A program made the translations under genes and the position numbers. From positions 32,001-96,000 of the IMG/VR virus record IMGVR_UViG_3300028886_000004: DNA of 64,000 nt; one strand, 5' to 3'. The stretch's first letter is position 1. The number at the start of each line of letters is the position of its first letter. Source of the DNA: a virus. Taxonomy: Duplodnaviria > Caudoviricetes. The notes beneath the pieces are model-generated. The model worked only from the letters and a program-made list of their open reading frames with translations, did no database searches and had not been told where the DNA came from. This document shows, in pieces, positions 11 to 43,676 of the stretch.

Positions 11-2797
11 TTGTATAGCACCTATTGGAAAGAATTTCTGTCCGCGAAAGTGAACGCGGGCCCGACTCCTCCCGGTCCGAAGGTGAAGCCGATGTATTTG
101 CGCCTCGAGCAGGTGCCGCCGGAAACCACCCTTGTGGACCAGTATGCAAATTTCATACCGGAGCTTCCGCTCGTAACCATCGAGATGGATGGCGAGCGCA
201 TCAACGTGACCGATCGTATCACGGCGAATACGCCCAATACGGAGGTTCCAGGGCTGTTTCGTATCGATTACCGCATAAATCTATCCCACGAGTTTTCATC
301 GCCTATTTGGGCCGTTTATGTCTCAATACAACAGCGTCCGATTTTGCGAAAGGCCGCCGCGGGCTGGGTGCGCGATAGCTATGTGATTCAAACGCTCAAC
401 CGCCTTGTGATGGAACCGCAGTTCTTGGAAGCACTCCACGCCGCGGGCGAACCGCTTTACGGCTTTATGGAGGCCAACCAGCATCCGTCCGTAAGGGCCT
501 CGAATCTCTACAAATATGAAGGGCTGGAAGCGTGGGGAGCTGGCGGCGCGTTTAACGACCACTCCAACGGCATCTTCATCACCGGGCTGAAACTTCCGCA
601 AGGCTCCATCGTCATCTATCAAAGACGGATGCTCCAGCTTCGCGAGCCCGTTTGGCCGGATCCGGTCGGCGCCTTCCATCATATGGATCCGCTGACCCAC
701 GAGCGCACCCCGGATGCCTATTCCAAGGGTAGCGTCGTGCGCGATGGAGATTCCTGCTACATTTGTATCAACGAGGCCAATTCCGGTATTCCGATGAGCA
801 ACGCGGACTACTGGCGCAAAGGCTATCTCTACAAATTCAATGTCCTTAACGGCGACGATGATTTCAGGTTGCCGCGTGGGCGCCTGCCAGTCGGCAAAGG
901 CGGCGTGGAACATATTTGGATTACGGTGGACAACCAGGGCTATTCGTTTTGGGTGGACATCGCCAACCAAACGTCCATCGGCACATATCGCGGATACTAC
1001 GACCGCAAGCACTACGCCGACTACGGCACCGGGGATATGGTCACCTATATCTCCGAGGATGCCATCAAATTGTTCAAGCGCAAGGCCACGGACATTCAGG
1101 GGCAGGATACCTTGATCTACCCGCCGGGACATCATCTCAACCCCGCTTGGGATGAGGTCTTCGCCAAATTCCCCGAGGAGCACCAGCCGCTGTTCTCCGA
1201 TTACTTTATTGTCCCGCATACCAACGCGTCGAACGCTGTTCTTGCAAAAACGTGGACAGTGTCGGAAGAGATGTGCGAGGCCTACGGGAATATGATGGGT
1301 ATTCCTCCGCTGATCGTGAAGGAGTGCGGCGCCAAGTGGTCCGCATTGCTTTTCGCATTGCTGTCCCGCACACGCAACACCTTTGAAGGACTCCGCGTTT
1401 GCTTCCGGGCGGTTGGCTTGGATGTGGAGAATCTCCGCTTGTCCGATCCGTCCCTCAAATACCTGTGCAACCCCGATGGCGACGGGCTGGAAGAGGTTGA
1501 TGACGTTTACACGCAACACGAGAATCTCCGCAGGCTCATTGCGAACATTGATTCGCTGGCGCCTGAGGGCAAAGAAAAGGCGGAAGAGGGTTGCCTCCGC
1601 TATGTTACCGAAAATACAGAAGGCGCCGATTCGAAGGACATCAATGTTGCCATCCAGCAATATTCGGAAGCGGATGGCGGCTGGGTTACGCGCTATCGCT
1701 TTGAAAGGATTGAGCCGGCACAGAATTTCAATAACCGCTACTACAAAGGCGATTTGAATGTGCTGGCACGCCTCGCCGAGGATGCAGTTGCCGATTTGGG
1801 CGATGGACATACTTGGGTGAAGGAGTCCGCTTGGGCAGGCAACCCGTCGGCGCTCGTTGCCGAATGCCTTACCTATGAAATTCCTATCTACATTTTCCTC
1901 CGCCTCAAGATTTGGCTCTATGCGGAAAACCGCATTGAAATGCAGGGCTTCGTTTATTCCGGACTTTGCGATGGTCAACGCGGCGGCGCCAAGAATGTGA
2001 TTGAATTGTTCCCCTCGCGCTACTTCAGCCGCGTTGCCCACAACTTCGTTGATGTGGAAACCGGGGTGTTCATTAAGGAGAATGACGGCTGGACCGAAGT
2101 GCAGCCTACGCGCTACAATGAGGAACGCGGTTCCAAAATCTATGAATTCAATGGAATGGTGAATCCGCTCCGCATTATGGCGGTGGACCCGGACAATGTA
2201 TCGTTTGTCCGCTATTGGCAATCGACCCACACGTTCGGCCTGCTCGGGCTGGCGGATTCCACATCGACCGTTAACGAAGTCCCCTTCTTCAACGATGCGC
2301 ACTTCCATAACGTGACCGACCCGGACATTACGGACGAAACCGAATTGATGCTTATGAATGGCTATGTCGGGGTCACGGCATTGTATCGCCCGAAGGAATT
2401 GCACGCGCTCGCATCCGCCCGCCGCTGGATGTATGTTCTCGGCGAGGAGGACTCCGAGGAGAAGTGGGAATTGAGCAACGACGTTGCCTTCGCGGACTTT
2501 GCCGATATCGAGTCCACGGCCATCTATCCGTTTGAAGGGGATGCGGCTTCCTTGAAGGCTGCTCTCAACTACGTCACGGACGGGGAAGGCAATCGCCTTG
2601 ACTTTGAATGGGATGGCGATGAATTGGTCTTCCACGACATCTTCCCGGATGCCATCTACCTGAGGGACAGCGACGGGGTTATCCTTGGCGCCTACGCCTT
2701 GGTGGCCGGACAATACACATTGACGCAGACCGATTACGACCACTACCGCACGGAAACTCCCTGCACATCTGTCCGCATTGGTTTTTCCTACGAGTAG
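11..2797 (+). CDS. Large virion structural protein, probably baseplate wedge/tail-associated; may begin before the window
   Basis: 928-aa ORF with short CBM5/12-like motifs (AYSKGSVVRDGDSCYIC, DYGTGDMVTY), upstream of a tail-fibre-like gene. Confidence 0.5.
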   Translation: MYSTYWKEFLSAKVNAGPTPPGPKVKPMYLRLEQVPPETTLVDQYANFIPELPLVTIEMDGERINVTDRITANTPNTEVPGLFRIDYRINLSHEFSSPIWAVYVSIQQRPILRKAAAGWVRDSYVIQTLNRLVMEPQFLEALHAAGEPLYGFMEANQHPSVRASNLYKYEGLEAWGAGGAFNDHSNGIFITGLKLPQGSIVIYQRRMLQLREPVWPDPVGAFHHMDPLTHERTPDAYSKGSVVRDGDSCYICINEANSGIPMSNADYWRKGYLYKFNVLNGDDDFRLPRGRLPVGKGGVEHIWITVDNQGYSFWVDIANQTSIGTYRGYYDRKHYADYGTGDMVTYISEDAIKLFKRKATDIQGQDTLIYPPGHHLNPAWDEVFAKFPEEHQPLFSDYFIVPHTNASNAVLAKTWTVSEEMCEAYGNMMGIPPLIVKECGAKWSALLFALLSRTRNTFEGLRVCFRAVGLDVENLRLSDPSLKYLCNPDGDGLEEVDDVYTQHENLRRLIANIDSLAPEGKEKAEEGCLRYVTENTEGADSKDINVAIQQYSEADGGWVTRYRFERIEPAQNFNNRYYKGDLNVLARLAEDAVADLGDGHTWVKESAWAGNPSALVAECLTYEIPIYIFLRLKIWLYAENRIEMQGFVYSGLCDGQRGGAKNVIELFPSRYFSRVAHNFVDVETGVFIKENDGWTEVQPTRYNEERGSKIYEFNGMVNPLRIMAVDPDNVSFVRYWQSTHTFGLLGLADSTSTVNEVPFFNDAHFHNVTDPDITDETELMLMNGYVGVTALYRPKELHALASARRWMYVLGEEDSEEKWELSNDVAFADFADIESTAIYPFEGDAASLKAALNYVTDGEGNRLDFEWDGDELVFHDIFPDAIYLRDSDGVILGAYALVAGQYTLTQTDYDHYRTETPCTSVRIGFSYE

Positions 2798-4528: not shown

Positions 4529-5794
4529 ATGGGAATCAAACTTATCAAGAAAACAAACGAGTCCTTTGAATCGGACTTGGAAAACATTGCGCAGACCAGC
4601 GGCGAAATCGAATACGATGACGCCTGGAAATTGAATCGCTCCGCCGCCAAGGATCCGGAACTCCGTAAAAAGGTCCGCAACCTGATTGGCGATTGGCGCA
4701 GCGCCGCCGAGGACGAGGACAACGATGAAATGACAAAGGCCGCCAAGGCGCTCAAGGCATTGGCGGATTCCCTGCCTAAGCAGGAGGCGCGTATGCACCT
4801 CGGCCGCTGCGTAAACTGCCACGGCGGATGGACCAAGACCAATTACGTCGATGAACTGGAACCGGACGTTCGCAAATACTTCAAGGGAATAGGCTTCGCG
4901 GATAACGACGACGTTTGCCCCAAGTGTGTTGCGGCGGTGAAAAAGCATCTCGCGCAGGGCAAGGCCGAAGGCGCCACCTATGACGAATATGTGGACGCGG
5001 TTGCAGCCAGCCTTGAAGATGACTTTGAATACAGCCCGATTACGGCGCTTGAATTTGCCCGCGATGATTTCAAGGACATCACAAAGGCCTTCTACAGCGC
5101 TACCAAGACCCCGAAAGAAGCCGCAAAGGAAATTGACGCCAAGTATATGGGCGAAGGCCGCAAAAAGGCCGAAGGTCACGAAGGCTGGGACGATTGGGAA
5201 GAAGTCGAAGGGCTGGAAGAATCCATTGAAGGAATTGAAAACCTCGCCTACGAATTGCGCCACTGCATTCGCGGCGCCAAGACCCATTGCAAGGATTGGA
5301 AGTCCCTCGCCCTTTACATCAAGGGACTTGCATCCAACCTTGACGATGCCGCCGAATTGATGGCATACAAAACGGACAGCGATGACGATGATGAATCCGC
5401 AAATGAATCGGACAATCCCGTAGGCGAACTCTTTGATGCCTTGAAGCAGGCGCTTGCCGGAAAGGGCTACAAGGTTTCGCAGTTCACCTCGGACAAGGAA
5501 TTTGTCGGACAGAAGAAGGCTTTCGACGGCATAAGCATCGAAAGTGAGGACCCCGACGCGTACCACAAAAATCCGTACCGCATTGTCCTTGATACGGATG
5601 ACAACCTCTTCCGCATCTTCTTCCCCGGGGTTCGCCGCAAATCCGTAACCGGACAGCCCGGCAGCATTTCGGGCATTGTCAAATTCATCTTGCGCGACCT
5701 CAATTTGGATGAATCCAAGAAGAAGAAAAACCCGAGCAAGGATTTTTCGTCCACTGTTGAAGAGGACGAAGATGGCAGAAAGAAATCTCACTAG
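4529..5794 (+). CDS. Putative internal head polyprotein (MGIKLIKKTNE tag; CxxC..CxxC module)
   Basis: True start is the ATG at 4529 after AAGGA; shared tag; acidic; recurring K/A-x-E sites. Confidence 0.75.
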   Translation: MGIKLIKKTNESFESDLENIAQTSGEIEYDDAWKLNRSAAKDPELRKKVRNLIGDWRSAAEDEDNDEMTKAAKALKALADSLPKQEARMHLGRCVNCHGGWTKTNYVDELEPDVRKYFKGIGFADNDDVCPKCVAAVKKHLAQGKAEGATYDEYVDAVAASLEDDFEYSPITALEFARDDFKDITKAFYSATKTPKEAAKEIDAKYMGEGRKKAEGHEGWDDWEEVEGLEESIEGIENLAYELRHCIRGAKTHCKDWKSLALYIKGLASNLDDAAELMAYKTDSDDDDESANESDNPVGELFDALKQALAGKGYKVSQFTSDKEFVGQKKAFDGISIESEDPDAYHKNPYRIVLDTDDNLFRIFFPGVRRKSVTGQPGSISGIVKFILRDLNLDESKKKKNPSKDFSSTVEEDEDGRKKSH

Positions 5795-22459: not shown

Positions 22460-22703
22460 CGGAACCTCGTATATAAAGACATCCGGAGGCACGCGTTGTT
22501 CTTGGTGCCTTAAAAGATGGAGCAAGAAGGAAAGTCGCTGCCTTGCGGCCCGTCGCGCGGGAACTGGCACGATGATTACGAAGGATGTGAGAGAGAAGGC
22601 GGGGCAAGTGCCCCAACGCCGGAATCCGGTGAGGGCGAAAGCTAACAAAGGGCCAATCCAACGCAGACGTGTAGAGGGTTGGCCCCTTTCGTATATTAAG
22701 GAC

Positions 22704-34725: not shown

Positions 34726-35114
34726 TGGAAGTTAAAGGCACTCTTCTCAAGATGGATTTTCAATCCAACCGCAACCATCGTCACTATGCGCTCCCCGAAA
34801 AGGCAGTGGCGGAATTTAATTCGCGCCCGCCGGAAAAGCGCGTGGCAACCCTTCGCTGGCCTAAGATGGACCAAAAGAAGGAAGAACTCCAGTGCGGCAC
34901 CATTGATGTTCTTCAGGATACCTGCGGACATGTTGTGGCGAGCGTGGCACTTGACCCCAGCCTGCCGGGCGGCAAGGAATTGAAGGCGCTTGTTGAAGGC
35001 GGCAAGACCCTTGTATGCGGCTTGGGCGGCTACGGGCATTGTGAAGGCGAGGCCGCCGTGATGGATTCGATTGAATATGTTGCCATCAGCGAGCCTCAAG
35101 AGGTTCCCCGCTAG
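34725..35114 (+). CDS. Prohead-protease (gp21)-like paralog apparently lacking catalytic residues
   Basis: NRNHRHY and LPGGKELKALVEGG align with 53823; GH and SSR motifs absent. Confidence 0.6.
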   Translation: MEVKGTLLKMDFQSNRNHRHYALPEKAVAEFNSRPPEKRVATLRWPKMDQKKEELQCGTIDVLQDTCGHVVASVALDPSLPGGKELKALVEGGKTLVCGLGGYGHCEGEAAVMDSIEYVAISEPQEVPR

Positions 35115-35128
35115 CGTATATAGAAGAA

Positions 35129-35464
35129 AGTCACGCATAACTCAATTCGGATGGACACCTACCATTTCAGCCCATCAGGTGGATGCATACACTTGGAGGC
35201 CTACTGGTGGCAAAGACCAAGAAGATAACAGGTGGTTCGGGTAGCTCCCGGGTTACTGAGAGTGCCGGTGTGGATCCGGTGGTTGTGGTGAAAGTCCACT
35301 GCGTGCAAACCTTTATGCAGGGCTGCCCACCTGTGCTTCAAAGAATGGGCTTCCAACGTGCCGGGGTTATTTACCGTAGCGTTGGCGTTCCGCCTACGAA
35401 ATAAGGGCGGGCGGCATCGGTCAGTGCCGCGGGATAAAACCCGGAGGAGTGAAGAACCGTGACT
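35129..35464 (+). ncRNA. Candidate ~335-nt structured ncRNA
   Basis: Own CGTATATA box and terminator; AGTCACG/CGTGACT, AGCCCAT/ATGGGCT, ACAGGTGG/CCACCTGT helices; GTGGTGAAAGTCCAC T-loop-type hairpin. Confidence 0.65.
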
Positions 35465-35466
35465 AG

Positions 35467-35501
35467 TCCGGCGGACCTTCGGGAAGCGCCGGATTTTTTT
35501 T
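35467..35501 (+). terminator. Rho-independent terminator
   Basis: TCCGGCG..CGCCGGA followed by T8. Confidence 0.8.
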
Positions 35502-35564
35502 GCACAAATCTCGTGCCGTATCTCCAGCCCGTATCTATATTATCAATCGTAAAGGAAATTCAAC

Positions 35565-35648
35565 ATGAAAAAGAACTTCGCAAATAATTTCTACTATGAA
35601 GCCGAGGCCAATGCCGAAGCCTATTTTGCGTGTTCTGTGCGGTGTTGA
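35565..35648 (+). CDS. 27-aa leader peptide MKKNFANNFYYEAEANAEAYFACSVRC
   Basis: TATATT box and AAAGGA RBS upstream; rich in N/A/Y/E codons; ends inside the antiterminator arm. Confidence 0.8.
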   Translation: MKKNFANNFYYEAEANAEAYFACSVRC

Positions 35649-35708
35649 TTTCCAAGTGCATTTAACGGTTAATGGAGACGGCACCGGAAACGGTGCCGTT
35701 TTTATTTT
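35640..35708 (+). promoter_or_regulatory. Attenuator: antiterminator (35640-35654 with 35673-35686) versus terminator (35678-35708)
   Basis: CGGTGTTG-A-TT-TCCA pairs with TGGA-GA-CGGCACCG; the alternative is ACGGCACCG-GAAA-CGGTGCCGT plus TTTTATTTT. Confidence 0.8.
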
Positions 35709-35718
35709 CCGCAAATTT

Positions 35719-35791
35719 GGTTCCGTCGTCTAGTGGCCTAGGACATGCGGTTTTCATCCGCACAACTGGGGTTCGAATCCCCCCGGAACTA
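35719..35791 (+). tRNA. tRNA-Glu(TTC)
   Basis: Cloverleaf; TGCGG-TTTTCAT-CCGCA anticodon arm; GGTTCGAATCC. Confidence 0.92.
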
Positions 35792-35796
35792 CTAAT

Positions 35797-35869
35797 GGGA
35801 CGTTAGCTCAGTTGGTAGAGCACCTGCCTTGCAAGCAGGGGGTCATCGGTTCAAGTCCGATACGCTCCA
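35797..35869 (+). tRNA. tRNA-Ala(TGC)
   Basis: Cloverleaf; CCTGC-CTTGCAA-GCAGG; G3:U70. Confidence 0.93.
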
Positions 35870-35877
35870 CGAAACAT

Positions 35878-35951
35878 TGGATTGTAGCTCAATTTGGTAG
35901 AGCGTCCCGCTGTTAACGGGATGGTTGTAGGTTCGAGTCCTACCTTTCCAG
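35878..35951 (+). tRNA. tRNA-Asn(GTT)
   Basis: Cloverleaf; TCCCG-CTGTTAA-CGGGA; two U-U mismatches in the acceptor stem. Confidence 0.9.
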
Positions 35952-35958
35952 CGAATTT

Positions 35959-36042
35959 GGATAGGTATGCAAGATGGTCAAAGCAGGCTGACTGTAAATC
36001 AGCTCCCTTCGGGGTTCGTCGGTTCAAATCCCACCCTATCCA
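35959..36042 (+). tRNA. tRNA-Tyr(GTA)
   Basis: Cloverleaf with variable arm; GCTGA-CTGTAAA-TCAGC. Confidence 0.92.
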
Positions 36043-36137
36043 CTAAGATTGCTGTGCGTTTTAGGCGCGTATAAGCCCGGAAAATAGAAAAGGCGCCCAA
36101 ATACTCGGGGCGCCTTTAAAATCGCCTTAAAAGCGCG

Positions 36138-36662
36138 TTATACGTGAATTACGAGCTCCAGCCTGATCAGCGCCTCATCATCCACAGCCTTGGCATTTGG
36201 GTTGCGCAAAACTGATATTTCTCTTACGAAATATGACAAGTCCATCCCGCCGTAGTTGACATACAATTTGGCATACTGCTCGATATCCCCGGGGCAATAT
36301 TTTTCGATCTTGCTGTTCTTGGGGCGGAACTGCCCTTTGCCAGCTTCCGCGATGTCGGGAGGCAGGCGCTTGAGCGTGTAGGCAATGTTGGAGAAATTCA
36401 CCTCCTGCACATCCCCGTGATCGAACATGTCGGCTTGCGGATCCGTGTAGGCGATACGCGCTTGGAAGTCCGGCTCGTCCGGATAGCGGTATTCGTGGTC
36501 CTTGTTATTGTAGATGGAACCAGTCCTTGTCTTCGGGTCATAGCCGCCTTCGCGCGGGAGGTAGACATCCGTAACGAAGCCCTGGATTTGAACCAAGTGC
36601 TTGAGGGCGATGTATTCCCTGAAATCGGCGTGGCGCGTAATGACATTGTAACTGTGCGGCAT
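36138..36662 (-). CDS. Hypothetical protein (possible head-completion protein)
   Basis: Own GTATATTTG box on the minus strand. Confidence 0.6.
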   Translation of the reverse strand: MPHSYNVITRHADFREYIALKHLVQIQGFVTDVYLPREGGYDPKTRTGSIYNNKDHEYRYPDEPDFQARIAYTDPQADMFDHGDVQEVNFSNIAYTLKRLPPDIAEAGKGQFRPKNSKIEKYCPGDIEQYAKLYVNYGGMDLSYFVREISVLRNPNAKAVDDEALIRLELVIHV

Positions 36663-43147: not shown

Positions 43148-43535
43148 TGGACCAAGAACAGTTCAGCGCACTTGGGACGAGGTGAAGGCCGCCGCCATTT
43201 GGGCAGCCTCCAAGATGAAGGTGGACGGCAGGATGCTTAACGGCGTTTACGGGATTCCCCGTGGCGGCGCCTGCCTTGCGGTCCTCTTCTCCCATCTCCT
43301 GAAAATCGAATACCTTGACAAGCCGCGTGAAGGCTGCCTGATTTGCGATGACATCTCGGACACCGGCCAAACGCTGCTTCGTTACGCGAATCTCCCCGGG
43401 GTAACCTTCTACACGGACGTGGCGAAGGAAACCGCCCGGAAGCAGCCGGACTACTACGGGAAATTCATTCCTGAATTGGATGCGGATTCCGCCGCGTGGA
43501 TTGAATTTCCGTGGGAGGAACCTTCCAAGAAGTAA
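43140..43535 (+). CDS. Type I purine phosphoribosyltransferase (Gpt-like)
   Basis: GIPRGG, LICDDISDTGQT (PRPP motif) and WIEFPWE. Confidence 0.85.
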   Translation: MCNGPRTVQRTWDEVKAAAIWAASKMKVDGRMLNGVYGIPRGGACLAVLFSHLLKIEYLDKPREGCLICDDISDTGQTLLRYANLPGVTFYTDVAKETARKQPDYYGKFIPELDADSAAWIEFPWEEPSKK

Positions 43536-43676
43536 AAATGTCCGCCGTAGCGAATACGGCGGCGTTTTTATATATTTATAAGCGCGTATACGGCGATTTC
43601 GCAAAACCCAAGACTAATTCAAACACCTAAACAGAAATCGCCTTATACGCTTGTTATTGCGCAAATAGGAGGCAAT

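Follow-up and report, generated by a model that had tools for sequence, protein, structure and literature searches.

A predicted leader-peptide attenuator upstream of the tRNA array of a myovirus-like phage

The tRNA unit and its relatives

The window analysed here is a 64,000-nucleotide stretch of the DNA of a rumen phage; it spans bases 32001-96000 of an IMG/VR record that is a complete genome of 134,991 bp with terminal repeats. Genes for a major head protein, a tail sheath, and a DNA ligase make the phage look like a myovirus. Its RNA genes, searched genome-wide, are a tmRNA, a tRNA-Met, and four further tRNAs that lie in tandem on the plus strand of the window: tRNA-Glu (anticodon UUC; 35719-35792), tRNA-Ala (UGC; 35797-35870), tRNA-Asn (GUU; 35878-35952), and tRNA-Tyr (GUA; 35959-36043), all detected by ARAGORN and Rfam. 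Apart from the single tRNA-Met gene, these four are the only tRNAs of the genome.

The array belongs to a unit that extends from 35531 to 36117. The unit opens on the plus strand with a promoter-like box, GTAT..TATATTAT (35531-35543), whose predicted -10-like element TATATT lies at 35536-35541. The box is followed by a Shine-Dalgarno (SD) sequence, AAAGGAAA (35551-35558), and, about 25 nt downstream of the box, by a leader ORF of 27 codons (35565-35648; stop codon TGA at 35646-35648) that encodes the peptide MKKNFANNFYYEAEANAEAYFACSVRC. Codons 4-22 of this ORF (35574-35630) consist solely of Asn, Ala, Tyr, Glu, and Phe codons and are referred to below as the control-codon zone. Next comes a strong intrinsic terminator: its arms (35678-35686 and 35691-35699) enclose a GAAA loop, and its U-tract (35700-35708) ends 10 nt before tRNA-Glu. 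The unit is closed by a hairpin (36092-36117) that it shares with a convergent gene on the minus strand (36138-36662); the hairpin was read from the sequence, and a terminator-like site is predicted on the minus strand. An earlier note on this DNA had listed the TATATT box, the ribosome-binding site, the 27-codon ORF, the terminator, and the four tRNAs, and each was found in its place by ARAGORN, Rfam, or the sequence itself.

An independent promoter between the terminator and tRNA-Glu had been named in that note as an observation that would speak against attenuation. A motif search revealed no promoter-like motif in this gap, which at 10 nt is too short to hold a promoter. Motifs resembling GTATAT[TA]A are present upstream of the tmRNA, an upstream structured RNA, and the tRNA-Met region, and a similar box directly precedes leaderless tRNAs in two relatives (L009 and L012). 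Because like boxes precede all these genes, the GTAT-A-T-[TA]-A box is probably the promoter of this lineage for RNA genes. A sigma-70-like match within the leader (35560-35588; 9/12 positions) was rejected because it was at chance level and its -35 element was not conserved. An ORF in the +1 frame from 35596 was also rejected: it has no SD sequence, its length varies among variants, and its ATG is lost in L015. When the genome was searched by nhmmer with the leader alignment as query, no second copy of the leader was found; one weak match in the window (43481-43576) consisted of a gene end and terminator only.

Relatives were gathered with a degenerate leader pattern and by look-ups of the neighbouring 174-aa gene. 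The related contigs came mostly from metagenome assemblies, including ruminant-gut samples. The comparison set comprised six distinct versions of the unit, all from a single phage lineage. The window (variant A), L007 (C), and L015 (F) have the array Glu-Ala-Asn-Tyr. L002 (B) has Glu-Ala-Tyr-Asn-Ser-Ser, L010 (D) has Phe-Glu-Ala-Asn-Tyr with tRNA-Phe (GAA) at its head, and L011 (E) has Glu, an inserted ORF, and Asn-Tyr. The TATATTAT box, the SD sequence AAAGGAAA 6-11 nt 5′ of an ATG, an ORF of exactly 27 codons, and a strong hairpin with a U-tract before the tRNAs were common to all six variants; in variant B the length of 27 codons is kept notwithstanding indels of +2 and -2. The distance from the U-tract to the first tRNA is 10-25 nt in the relatives. 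Further searches of IMG/VR, JGI metagenomes, and GTDB genomes with degenerate leader patterns gave only the same lineage or chance matches, and nothing in cultured phages matched the leader. Five distant homologues of the 174-aa gene (L008, L014, L021, L022, and L024) had no tRNAs nearby.

Alternative pairings in the leader RNA

The segment 35540-35720 folded more stably than shuffled versions of itself (z = -6.1). In the minimum free energy (MFE) fold of the free leader, a long 1:2 hairpin is followed by the 3:4 terminator. In the 1:2 hairpin, codons 3-7 and the SD/start region lie opposite the end of the ORF (codons 21-27 and the stop codon) and the UUUCC(A) that follows it. The 5′ strand of this hairpin is region 1 (35554-35584, including SD/start, AGAAC, and CGCAAA) and its 3′ strand is region 2 (35625-35654). 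Over the six variants, 94% of cells of this hairpin were paired and two pairs had changed on both sides; with six sequences this covariation is limited, and 19 of 500 shuffles scored as high. The 3′ part of region 2 (35640-35654), which holds the last codons, the stop codon, and UUUCCA, can alternatively pair with region 3 (35673-35686), composed of UGGAGA and the terminator 5′ arm. Region 4 (35691-35708), which like the others lies on the plus strand and was assigned by folding, comprises the terminator 3′ arm (35691-35699) and the U-tract (35700-35708).

The nascent RNA was folded without region 4, and a ribosome was simulated by masking. When the masked ribosome was placed at codons 12-20, all six variants were predicted to form an antiterminator (-13.4 to -21 kcal/mol) that joins the last codons, the stop codon, and UUUCCA to the GGA-purine stretch and the terminator 5′ arm. 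When it was placed at the stop codon, the remaining structure was unrelated and amounted to only -3 to -5 kcal/mol. The pairing of the terminator 5′ arm with the ORF end and stop codon, which the earlier note had proposed as an alternative, is thus the MFE fold of the nascent RNA when the ribosome is masked upstream. The check suggested there, namely folding of 35540-35720 with and without a ribosome footprint, gave the antiterminator only for a ribosome stalled upstream and not for one at the stop codon.

The raw MFE of the nascent RNA was not a discriminating measure (-19.8 for the leader; mean -17.1, sd 4.1, for 66 loosely defined hairpins), and the gain from upstream pairing of the 5′ arm, compared with compact terminators, was adopted in its place. 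This gain was -11.5 to -16 in the leaders. Among 23 compact terminators from the genome, it had a mean of -5.0 (sd 3.1), with that of the leader as the most extreme. Region 2 of L010 paired with its own region 3 at -13.3 and that of L002 at -14.8, whereas cross pairs gave -6.4 to -8.7 and -7.0 to -12.3, respectively. As judged from these predicted energies, region 2 co-varies with region 3 in the variants where region 2 differs (D and B). Five different terminator stem sequences occur among the six variants, each with perfect pairing, and in all six the stop codon lies within the segment able to pair with the terminator 5′ arm. In silico, the 1:2, 2:3, and 3:4 pairings persist through these sequence changes.

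At equilibrium, the terminator (-22 to -26 kcal/mol) is equal to or favoured over the antiterminator (-14 to -23 kcal/mol). Read-through must therefore rest on the kinetic order of folding. In the trp attenuator, the choice between terminator and antiterminator is likewise kinetic.

Codon content and conservation of the leader ORF

The codon count given by the earlier note was the same on recount: codons 4-22 of the window leader comprise four Asn, six Ala, three Tyr, and three Glu codons, and the other three are Phe. Amino acids of the array thus account for 16 of 19 codons, with a binomial P of 4e-8 against the phage's own amino-acid frequencies. The genome, read in all six frames, has 766 ORFs that start with ATG and are 20-40 codons long; in a ranking by fraction of Glu, Ala, Asn, and Tyr codons, the leader ORF (16/26) came first. 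These findings demonstrated that the match of the leader codons to the array exceeds chance.

Two caveats had been attached to this match. The first, that four Ala codons are GCC while the tRNA has anticodon UGC, was confirmed: the Ala codons of the window leader are GCA, four GCC, and GCG, so that four of six are a non-standard match for UGC. The second, that Phe codons have no matching tRNA, holds for the window array. It is softened by the array of L010, which opens with tRNA-Phe, and by the location of the three window Phe codons, which fall within or next to paired stretches of the leader hairpin. Every variant has Phe codons, and tRNA-Phe is absent from five of the six. In the window, the F5 codon lies in an internal loop of the hairpin, and the F9 and F21 codons pair with GAA and AAA of Glu and Ala/Asn codons. 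Because F9 and F21 are paired in the predicted hairpin, RNA structure may also favour Phe codons in the window leader.

Amino-acid replacements in codons 4-20 were counted by eye, by parsimony. Eleven events were found: E14A, N16Y, A19E, Y10F, Y11F, Y10N, N4Y, N16S, A17S, Y20S, and F5I. Ten of the 11 stay within Phe, Glu, Ala, Asn, Tyr, and Ser, as against an expectation of 24% for random non-synonymous single-base changes (P about 5e-6). Because the replacements keep within this set, the alignment indicates selection on composition, that is, on an alphabet of codons, and not on peptide sequence. Certain substitutions (N4Y in L002, for instance) also re-establish base pairs of the leader hairpin, and in these cases structure and codon choice are confounded.

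The earlier note had suggested that related phages be compared for co-variation of leader codons with the tRNA set. Read from the six variants, the outcome was mixed: one case favours such a link, and one or two others are neutral or speak against it. Only variant B carries a pair of tRNA-Ser genes (UGA and GCU), and no other variant has Ser codons in the control-codon zone (AGU, UCC, and UCA at positions 16, 17, and 20 of B), as the note would have it. In variant E, the inserted ORF (227 aa) leaves only the last ~12 nt of tRNA-Ala, and the leader keeps its six Ala codons; no group I intron that could be the cause of the interrupted tRNA-Ala was found there. In variant F, two Tyr codons have changed to Phe, yet there is no tRNA-Phe. 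Variant D, a neutral case, has tRNA-Phe and fewer Phe codons than the other variants.

An attenuator that senses general translation capacity (the availability of ribosomes, shut-off of the host, or slower elongation overall) would accommodate the cases that do not fit. Its alphabet would then reflect some other constraint, for example A/U-rich hairpin codons. The masked folding, the pairing gain of the 5′ arm, and the co-variation of regions 2 and 3 apply equally to such a sensor. It would also be consistent with abundant Phe codons in five variants without tRNA-Phe, with the Ala codons that persist in L011 after loss of tRNA-Ala, and with the location of several control codons in paired segments. 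However, a general sensor would need no particular alphabet, whereas that of the leader is limited to the amino acids of the array plus Phe, ranks first of 766 ORFs, and is kept through in-set replacements; moreover, Ser codons appear only in the variant with tRNA-Ser genes. We consider general sensing unlikely.

Codons 1-20 were the best-conserved segment of the unit in every between-group comparison (75-93% identity, vs. 38-68% in the flanks). Between the window and L007, the ORF has only four differences, all synonymous and at third positions, while the flanks are merely 56-68% identical. In the alignment of the six variants, read by eye, all third-position changes in two-fold codons are transitions that preserve the amino acid, and transversions are confined to four-fold Ala codons. 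No stop codon has arisen within the leader ORF in any of the six variants. Conservation is highest at codons 8-20, in the apical portion of the hairpin, where there is least structure. From these patterns, the leader ORF looks translated.

Conservation of the ORF, its SD sequence, and its length, together with the purely synonymous changes between the window and L007, would also be expected of an ordinary small-protein gene. In this case, the 27-residue peptide would be functional, the very strong and thermodynamically favoured terminator would be the gene's own, the tRNAs would arise from constitutive leak-through or upstream transcripts, and the match to the array would reflect coincidence or shared codon bias. 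Against this, first, second, and third codon positions have about equal shares of the variable columns, counted by eye, and between groups the peptide is therefore not conserved as a sequence; composition alone is kept. The final third of the variant B ORF has conserved nucleotides but uses another frame, and two compensating indels restore the 27 codons. The stop codon, moreover, always lies inside a segment that is complementary to, and co-varies with, the terminator 5′ arm, which would be needless for a free-standing gene. A small-protein gene is thus a rather improbable reading.

An untranslated structured RNA with an incidental ORF, either an sRNA (long hairpin plus terminator) or a 5′ processing or stability element of the tRNA precursor, would suit the long hairpin (z = -6; 94% paired over the variants), the part of its 3′ half conserved as nucleotides across the frame change, and the known existence of attenuator-derived sRNAs (PMC6614838), but it is very unlikely in view of the intact ORF in every variant, the synonymous third-position differences between the window and L007, the amino-acid-preserving transitions in two-fold codons, the kept alphabet, the strongest conservation in the least structured codons (8-20), and the lack of any Rfam match. 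A terminated leader could in addition act in trans, and in this respect a structured RNA and an attenuator are compatible.

A model of demand-driven tRNA supply and comparison with known systems

We conclude that the tRNA operon of the phage is probably controlled by this unit, acting as a ribosome-mediated (leader-peptide) transcription attenuator. The earlier note had read the locus in this way, and its reading is supported in silico by the conserved leader, the restricted alphabet that matches the array, the terminator abutting the tRNAs, and the persistent 1:2, 2:3, and 3:4 pairings. Translation of the leader, kinetic competition between the folds, and the signal are what we infer from these features.

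In the proposed mechanism, transcription would begin at the conserved promoter-like box. A ribosome would load on the SD sequence as the RNA emerges and translate the 27-codon leader, nearly all of whose codons are for Asn, Tyr, Glu, Ala, or Phe. If decoding is fast, the ribosome would reach the UGA and cover region 2, the 3:4 terminator would fold, and polymerase would stop 10 nt short of tRNA-Glu. A delay of the ribosome at any point within codons 1-20 would hold region 1 apart and leave region 2 free to pair with the emerging terminator 5′ arm (2:3); the terminator would then not form, and the four tRNAs would be transcribed. If no ribosome loads, the 1:2 hairpin, in which the SD sequence is buried, and the 3:4 terminator would both form, so that the default state would be off. 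Since the test codons are decoded by the very tRNAs being made, the circuit would be one of negative feedback: tRNA output would be set by decoding demand and would fall once the tRNAs accumulate. The model presupposes coupling of transcription and translation in the host. The trigger could be anticodon-nuclease attack or starvation, as had been suggested from the sequence alone.

A broader proposal is that phage tRNA supply is demand-driven and self-limiting. A leader "test strip" composed of codons that the array decodes would report a decoding shortfall, whether from codon-usage mismatch, host tRNA decay, or an anticodon-nuclease defence, and only then open the terminator. The unit would be a member of a widespread, undescribed class that has arisen repeatedly in unrelated phages, with phage phiCbK (see below) as a culturable example. 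We regard this proposal as somewhat better than an even chance.

The purpose of phage tRNAs is a fifty-year-old question. If the proposal is true, the phage measures a decoding shortfall and answers it with tRNA. This would bear directly on the codon-compensation and counter-defence hypotheses and render both testable, by asking what depletion the switch responds to. Expression of tRNA genes is generally regarded as constitutive or controlled by growth rate, and textbook attenuation would be extended to these genes as a new class of target. The unit would also constitute a compact, portable sensor of the availability of specific tRNAs. Bench tests are feasible, since comparable arrangements seem to exist in unrelated phages, among them the culturable phiCbK.

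Full-text literature searches found no paper on attenuation of tRNA genes, phage or cellular. Phage tRNAs are seen as a means of codon compensation or of counter-defence, replacing or supplementing host tRNAs, and tRNA-Tyr is among those named (PMC10264068, PMC11555353); these papers appear to concern the function of the tRNAs and not transcriptional control of their genes.

The closest parallels in mechanism are the leader-peptide attenuators of amino-acid operons, trpL, hisL, pheL, and leuL, and the multivalent thrL and ilvL (PMC1183508, PMC3082878). The phage unit resembles them in its short promoter-proximal ORF packed with regulatory codons, its terminator before the regulated genes, and its mutually exclusive 1:2, 2:3, and 3:4 pairings. 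A terminating ribosome at the stop codon would likewise block the antiterminator, and the untranslated leader would be off by default. As in the thr and ilv attenuators, several amino acids would be sensed together. Unlike the amino-acid operon attenuators, the phage unit would regulate tRNAs and not enzymes, giving direct feedback on the supply of tRNA instead of amino acid. It also differs from them in being phage-encoded, in sampling four to six amino acids, and in including the SD sequence and start codon in region 1, and its sequence resembles no known leader. In a search of the window unit against Rfam leaders and riboswitches (Trp, His, Phe, Thr, and Leu leaders and T-box), only the tRNAs reached the gathering score, and matches at E values up to 10 were at chance level.

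The pheST attenuator of E. coli, with its pheM leader, controls a decoding component for the amino acid whose codons fill the leader. Unlike the phage unit, it is a cellular element, its target is a synthetase gene, and a single amino acid is sensed. A supposed attenuator at the E. coli tRNA-Phe gene pheV was discarded as a precedent; the sequence there has a promoter abutting the tRNA and no leader. T-box riboswitches act on genes for synthetases, biosynthesis, and transport, and they bind uncharged tRNA themselves, with no translation involved. They are similar to the phage unit in that a choice between terminator and antiterminator reads the state of a specific tRNA pool. In the phage unit, unlike the T-box, the proposed sensor is the translating ribosome.

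A similar layout is present in phiCbK (JX100813). An annotated terminator precedes a Phe-Val-Ile-Ile-Val-Gln-Gln tRNA block and is itself preceded by a 32-codon ORF rich in Phe, Val, Ile, and Gln codons. This ORF contains an 8-nt copy of the terminator 3′ arm, and an antiterminator is predicted to fold in silico only with a ribosome masked in mid-ORF. In the same genome, a 45-codon ORF rich in Ser, Leu, Pro, and Lys precedes Pro...Lys...Leu...Ser blocks. The phiCbK element and the phage unit share the arrangement of a mini-ORF of array amino acids, a terminator, and a tRNA block, and they are not homologous in sequence. The phiCbK array is the larger of the two; the window array has only four tRNAs, and its codon match is therefore sharper. 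Elements of this kind thus seem to recur, and phiCbK seems to offer a model that can be cultured.

Promoter-like boxes, with and without the leader

A predicted GTAT-type promoter-like box recurs before RNA genes of this lineage. Leaderless tRNAs, Glu(CUC) and Tyr, were found on two contigs of relatives (L009, ~5287-5340, minus strand; L012, ~1356-1400, minus strand), and the box that precedes the leader unit recurs immediately 5′ of these tRNAs. Because the box stands directly before tRNAs that have no leader, the putative leader control is specific to the Glu-Ala-Asn-Tyr array and does not extend to all tRNAs of the lineage.

The window also encodes a phage tmRNA (22831-23188; Rfam, 144 bits) with tag peptide AAPVAMAA, and a GTATATTA box is present at 22691, 140 nt 5′ of this gene. 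Immediately 5′ of the leader lies a stretch of ~370 nt (35114-35501) with its own GTATATAG box at 35114 and its own terminator at 35467-35500. No convincing ORF was found in this stretch, and a comparison with Rfam gave no match. The part inspected (~35390-35500) is strongly conserved in the window (variant A) and in the related metagenomic phages of variants C, D, E and F, and is missing from variant B.

Rearrangement of the array in relatives

In variant E (L011 2684-3494, minus strand), a 227-aa ORF occupies the place of tRNA-Ala, of which only the final ~12 nt remain, before tRNA-Asn. Pfam gave no hit to the ORF above cut-off, nor was a signal of a group I intron found; the tRNA array appears to have taken up a mobile insertion here. 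Three relatives of variant B (L017, L018 and L019) have lost the leader together with tRNA-Glu, tRNA-Ala and tRNA-Tyr through a deletion (~3160-3425 in L017) by which an ORF lying upstream became fused to the 3′ half of tRNA-Asn; tRNA-Ser (CGA) and tRNA-Ser (GCU) are left without a leader. In the record of variant B (L032), ARAGORN reported two tRNA-like genes beside a tRNA-Met (293-366 and 601-676); their anticodon loops, 'gtca' and 'tt', are abnormal.

A conserved 174-aa gene, not assigned to a family by PHROGs or by Pfam, adjoins the array (window 36138-36662, minus strand; variant B, L002 4001-4510, plus strand). In the window this gene and the tRNAs converge, whereas in variant B the two are co-directional; this opposite orientation indicates a local inversion.

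Comparison with phiCbK

In the culturable phage phiCbK (JX100813, 47000-53000), annotated terminators are located immediately 5′ of tRNA blocks, and small ORFs precede the terminators. No clear enrichment was found in the 20-codon ORF ahead of Glu-Asp. A 32-codon ORF ahead of the Phe-Val-Ile-Ile-Val-Gln-Gln block is rich in F/V/I/Q, and gp083 (45 codons), ahead of Pro, Lys, Leu and Ser blocks, is rich in S/L/P/K.
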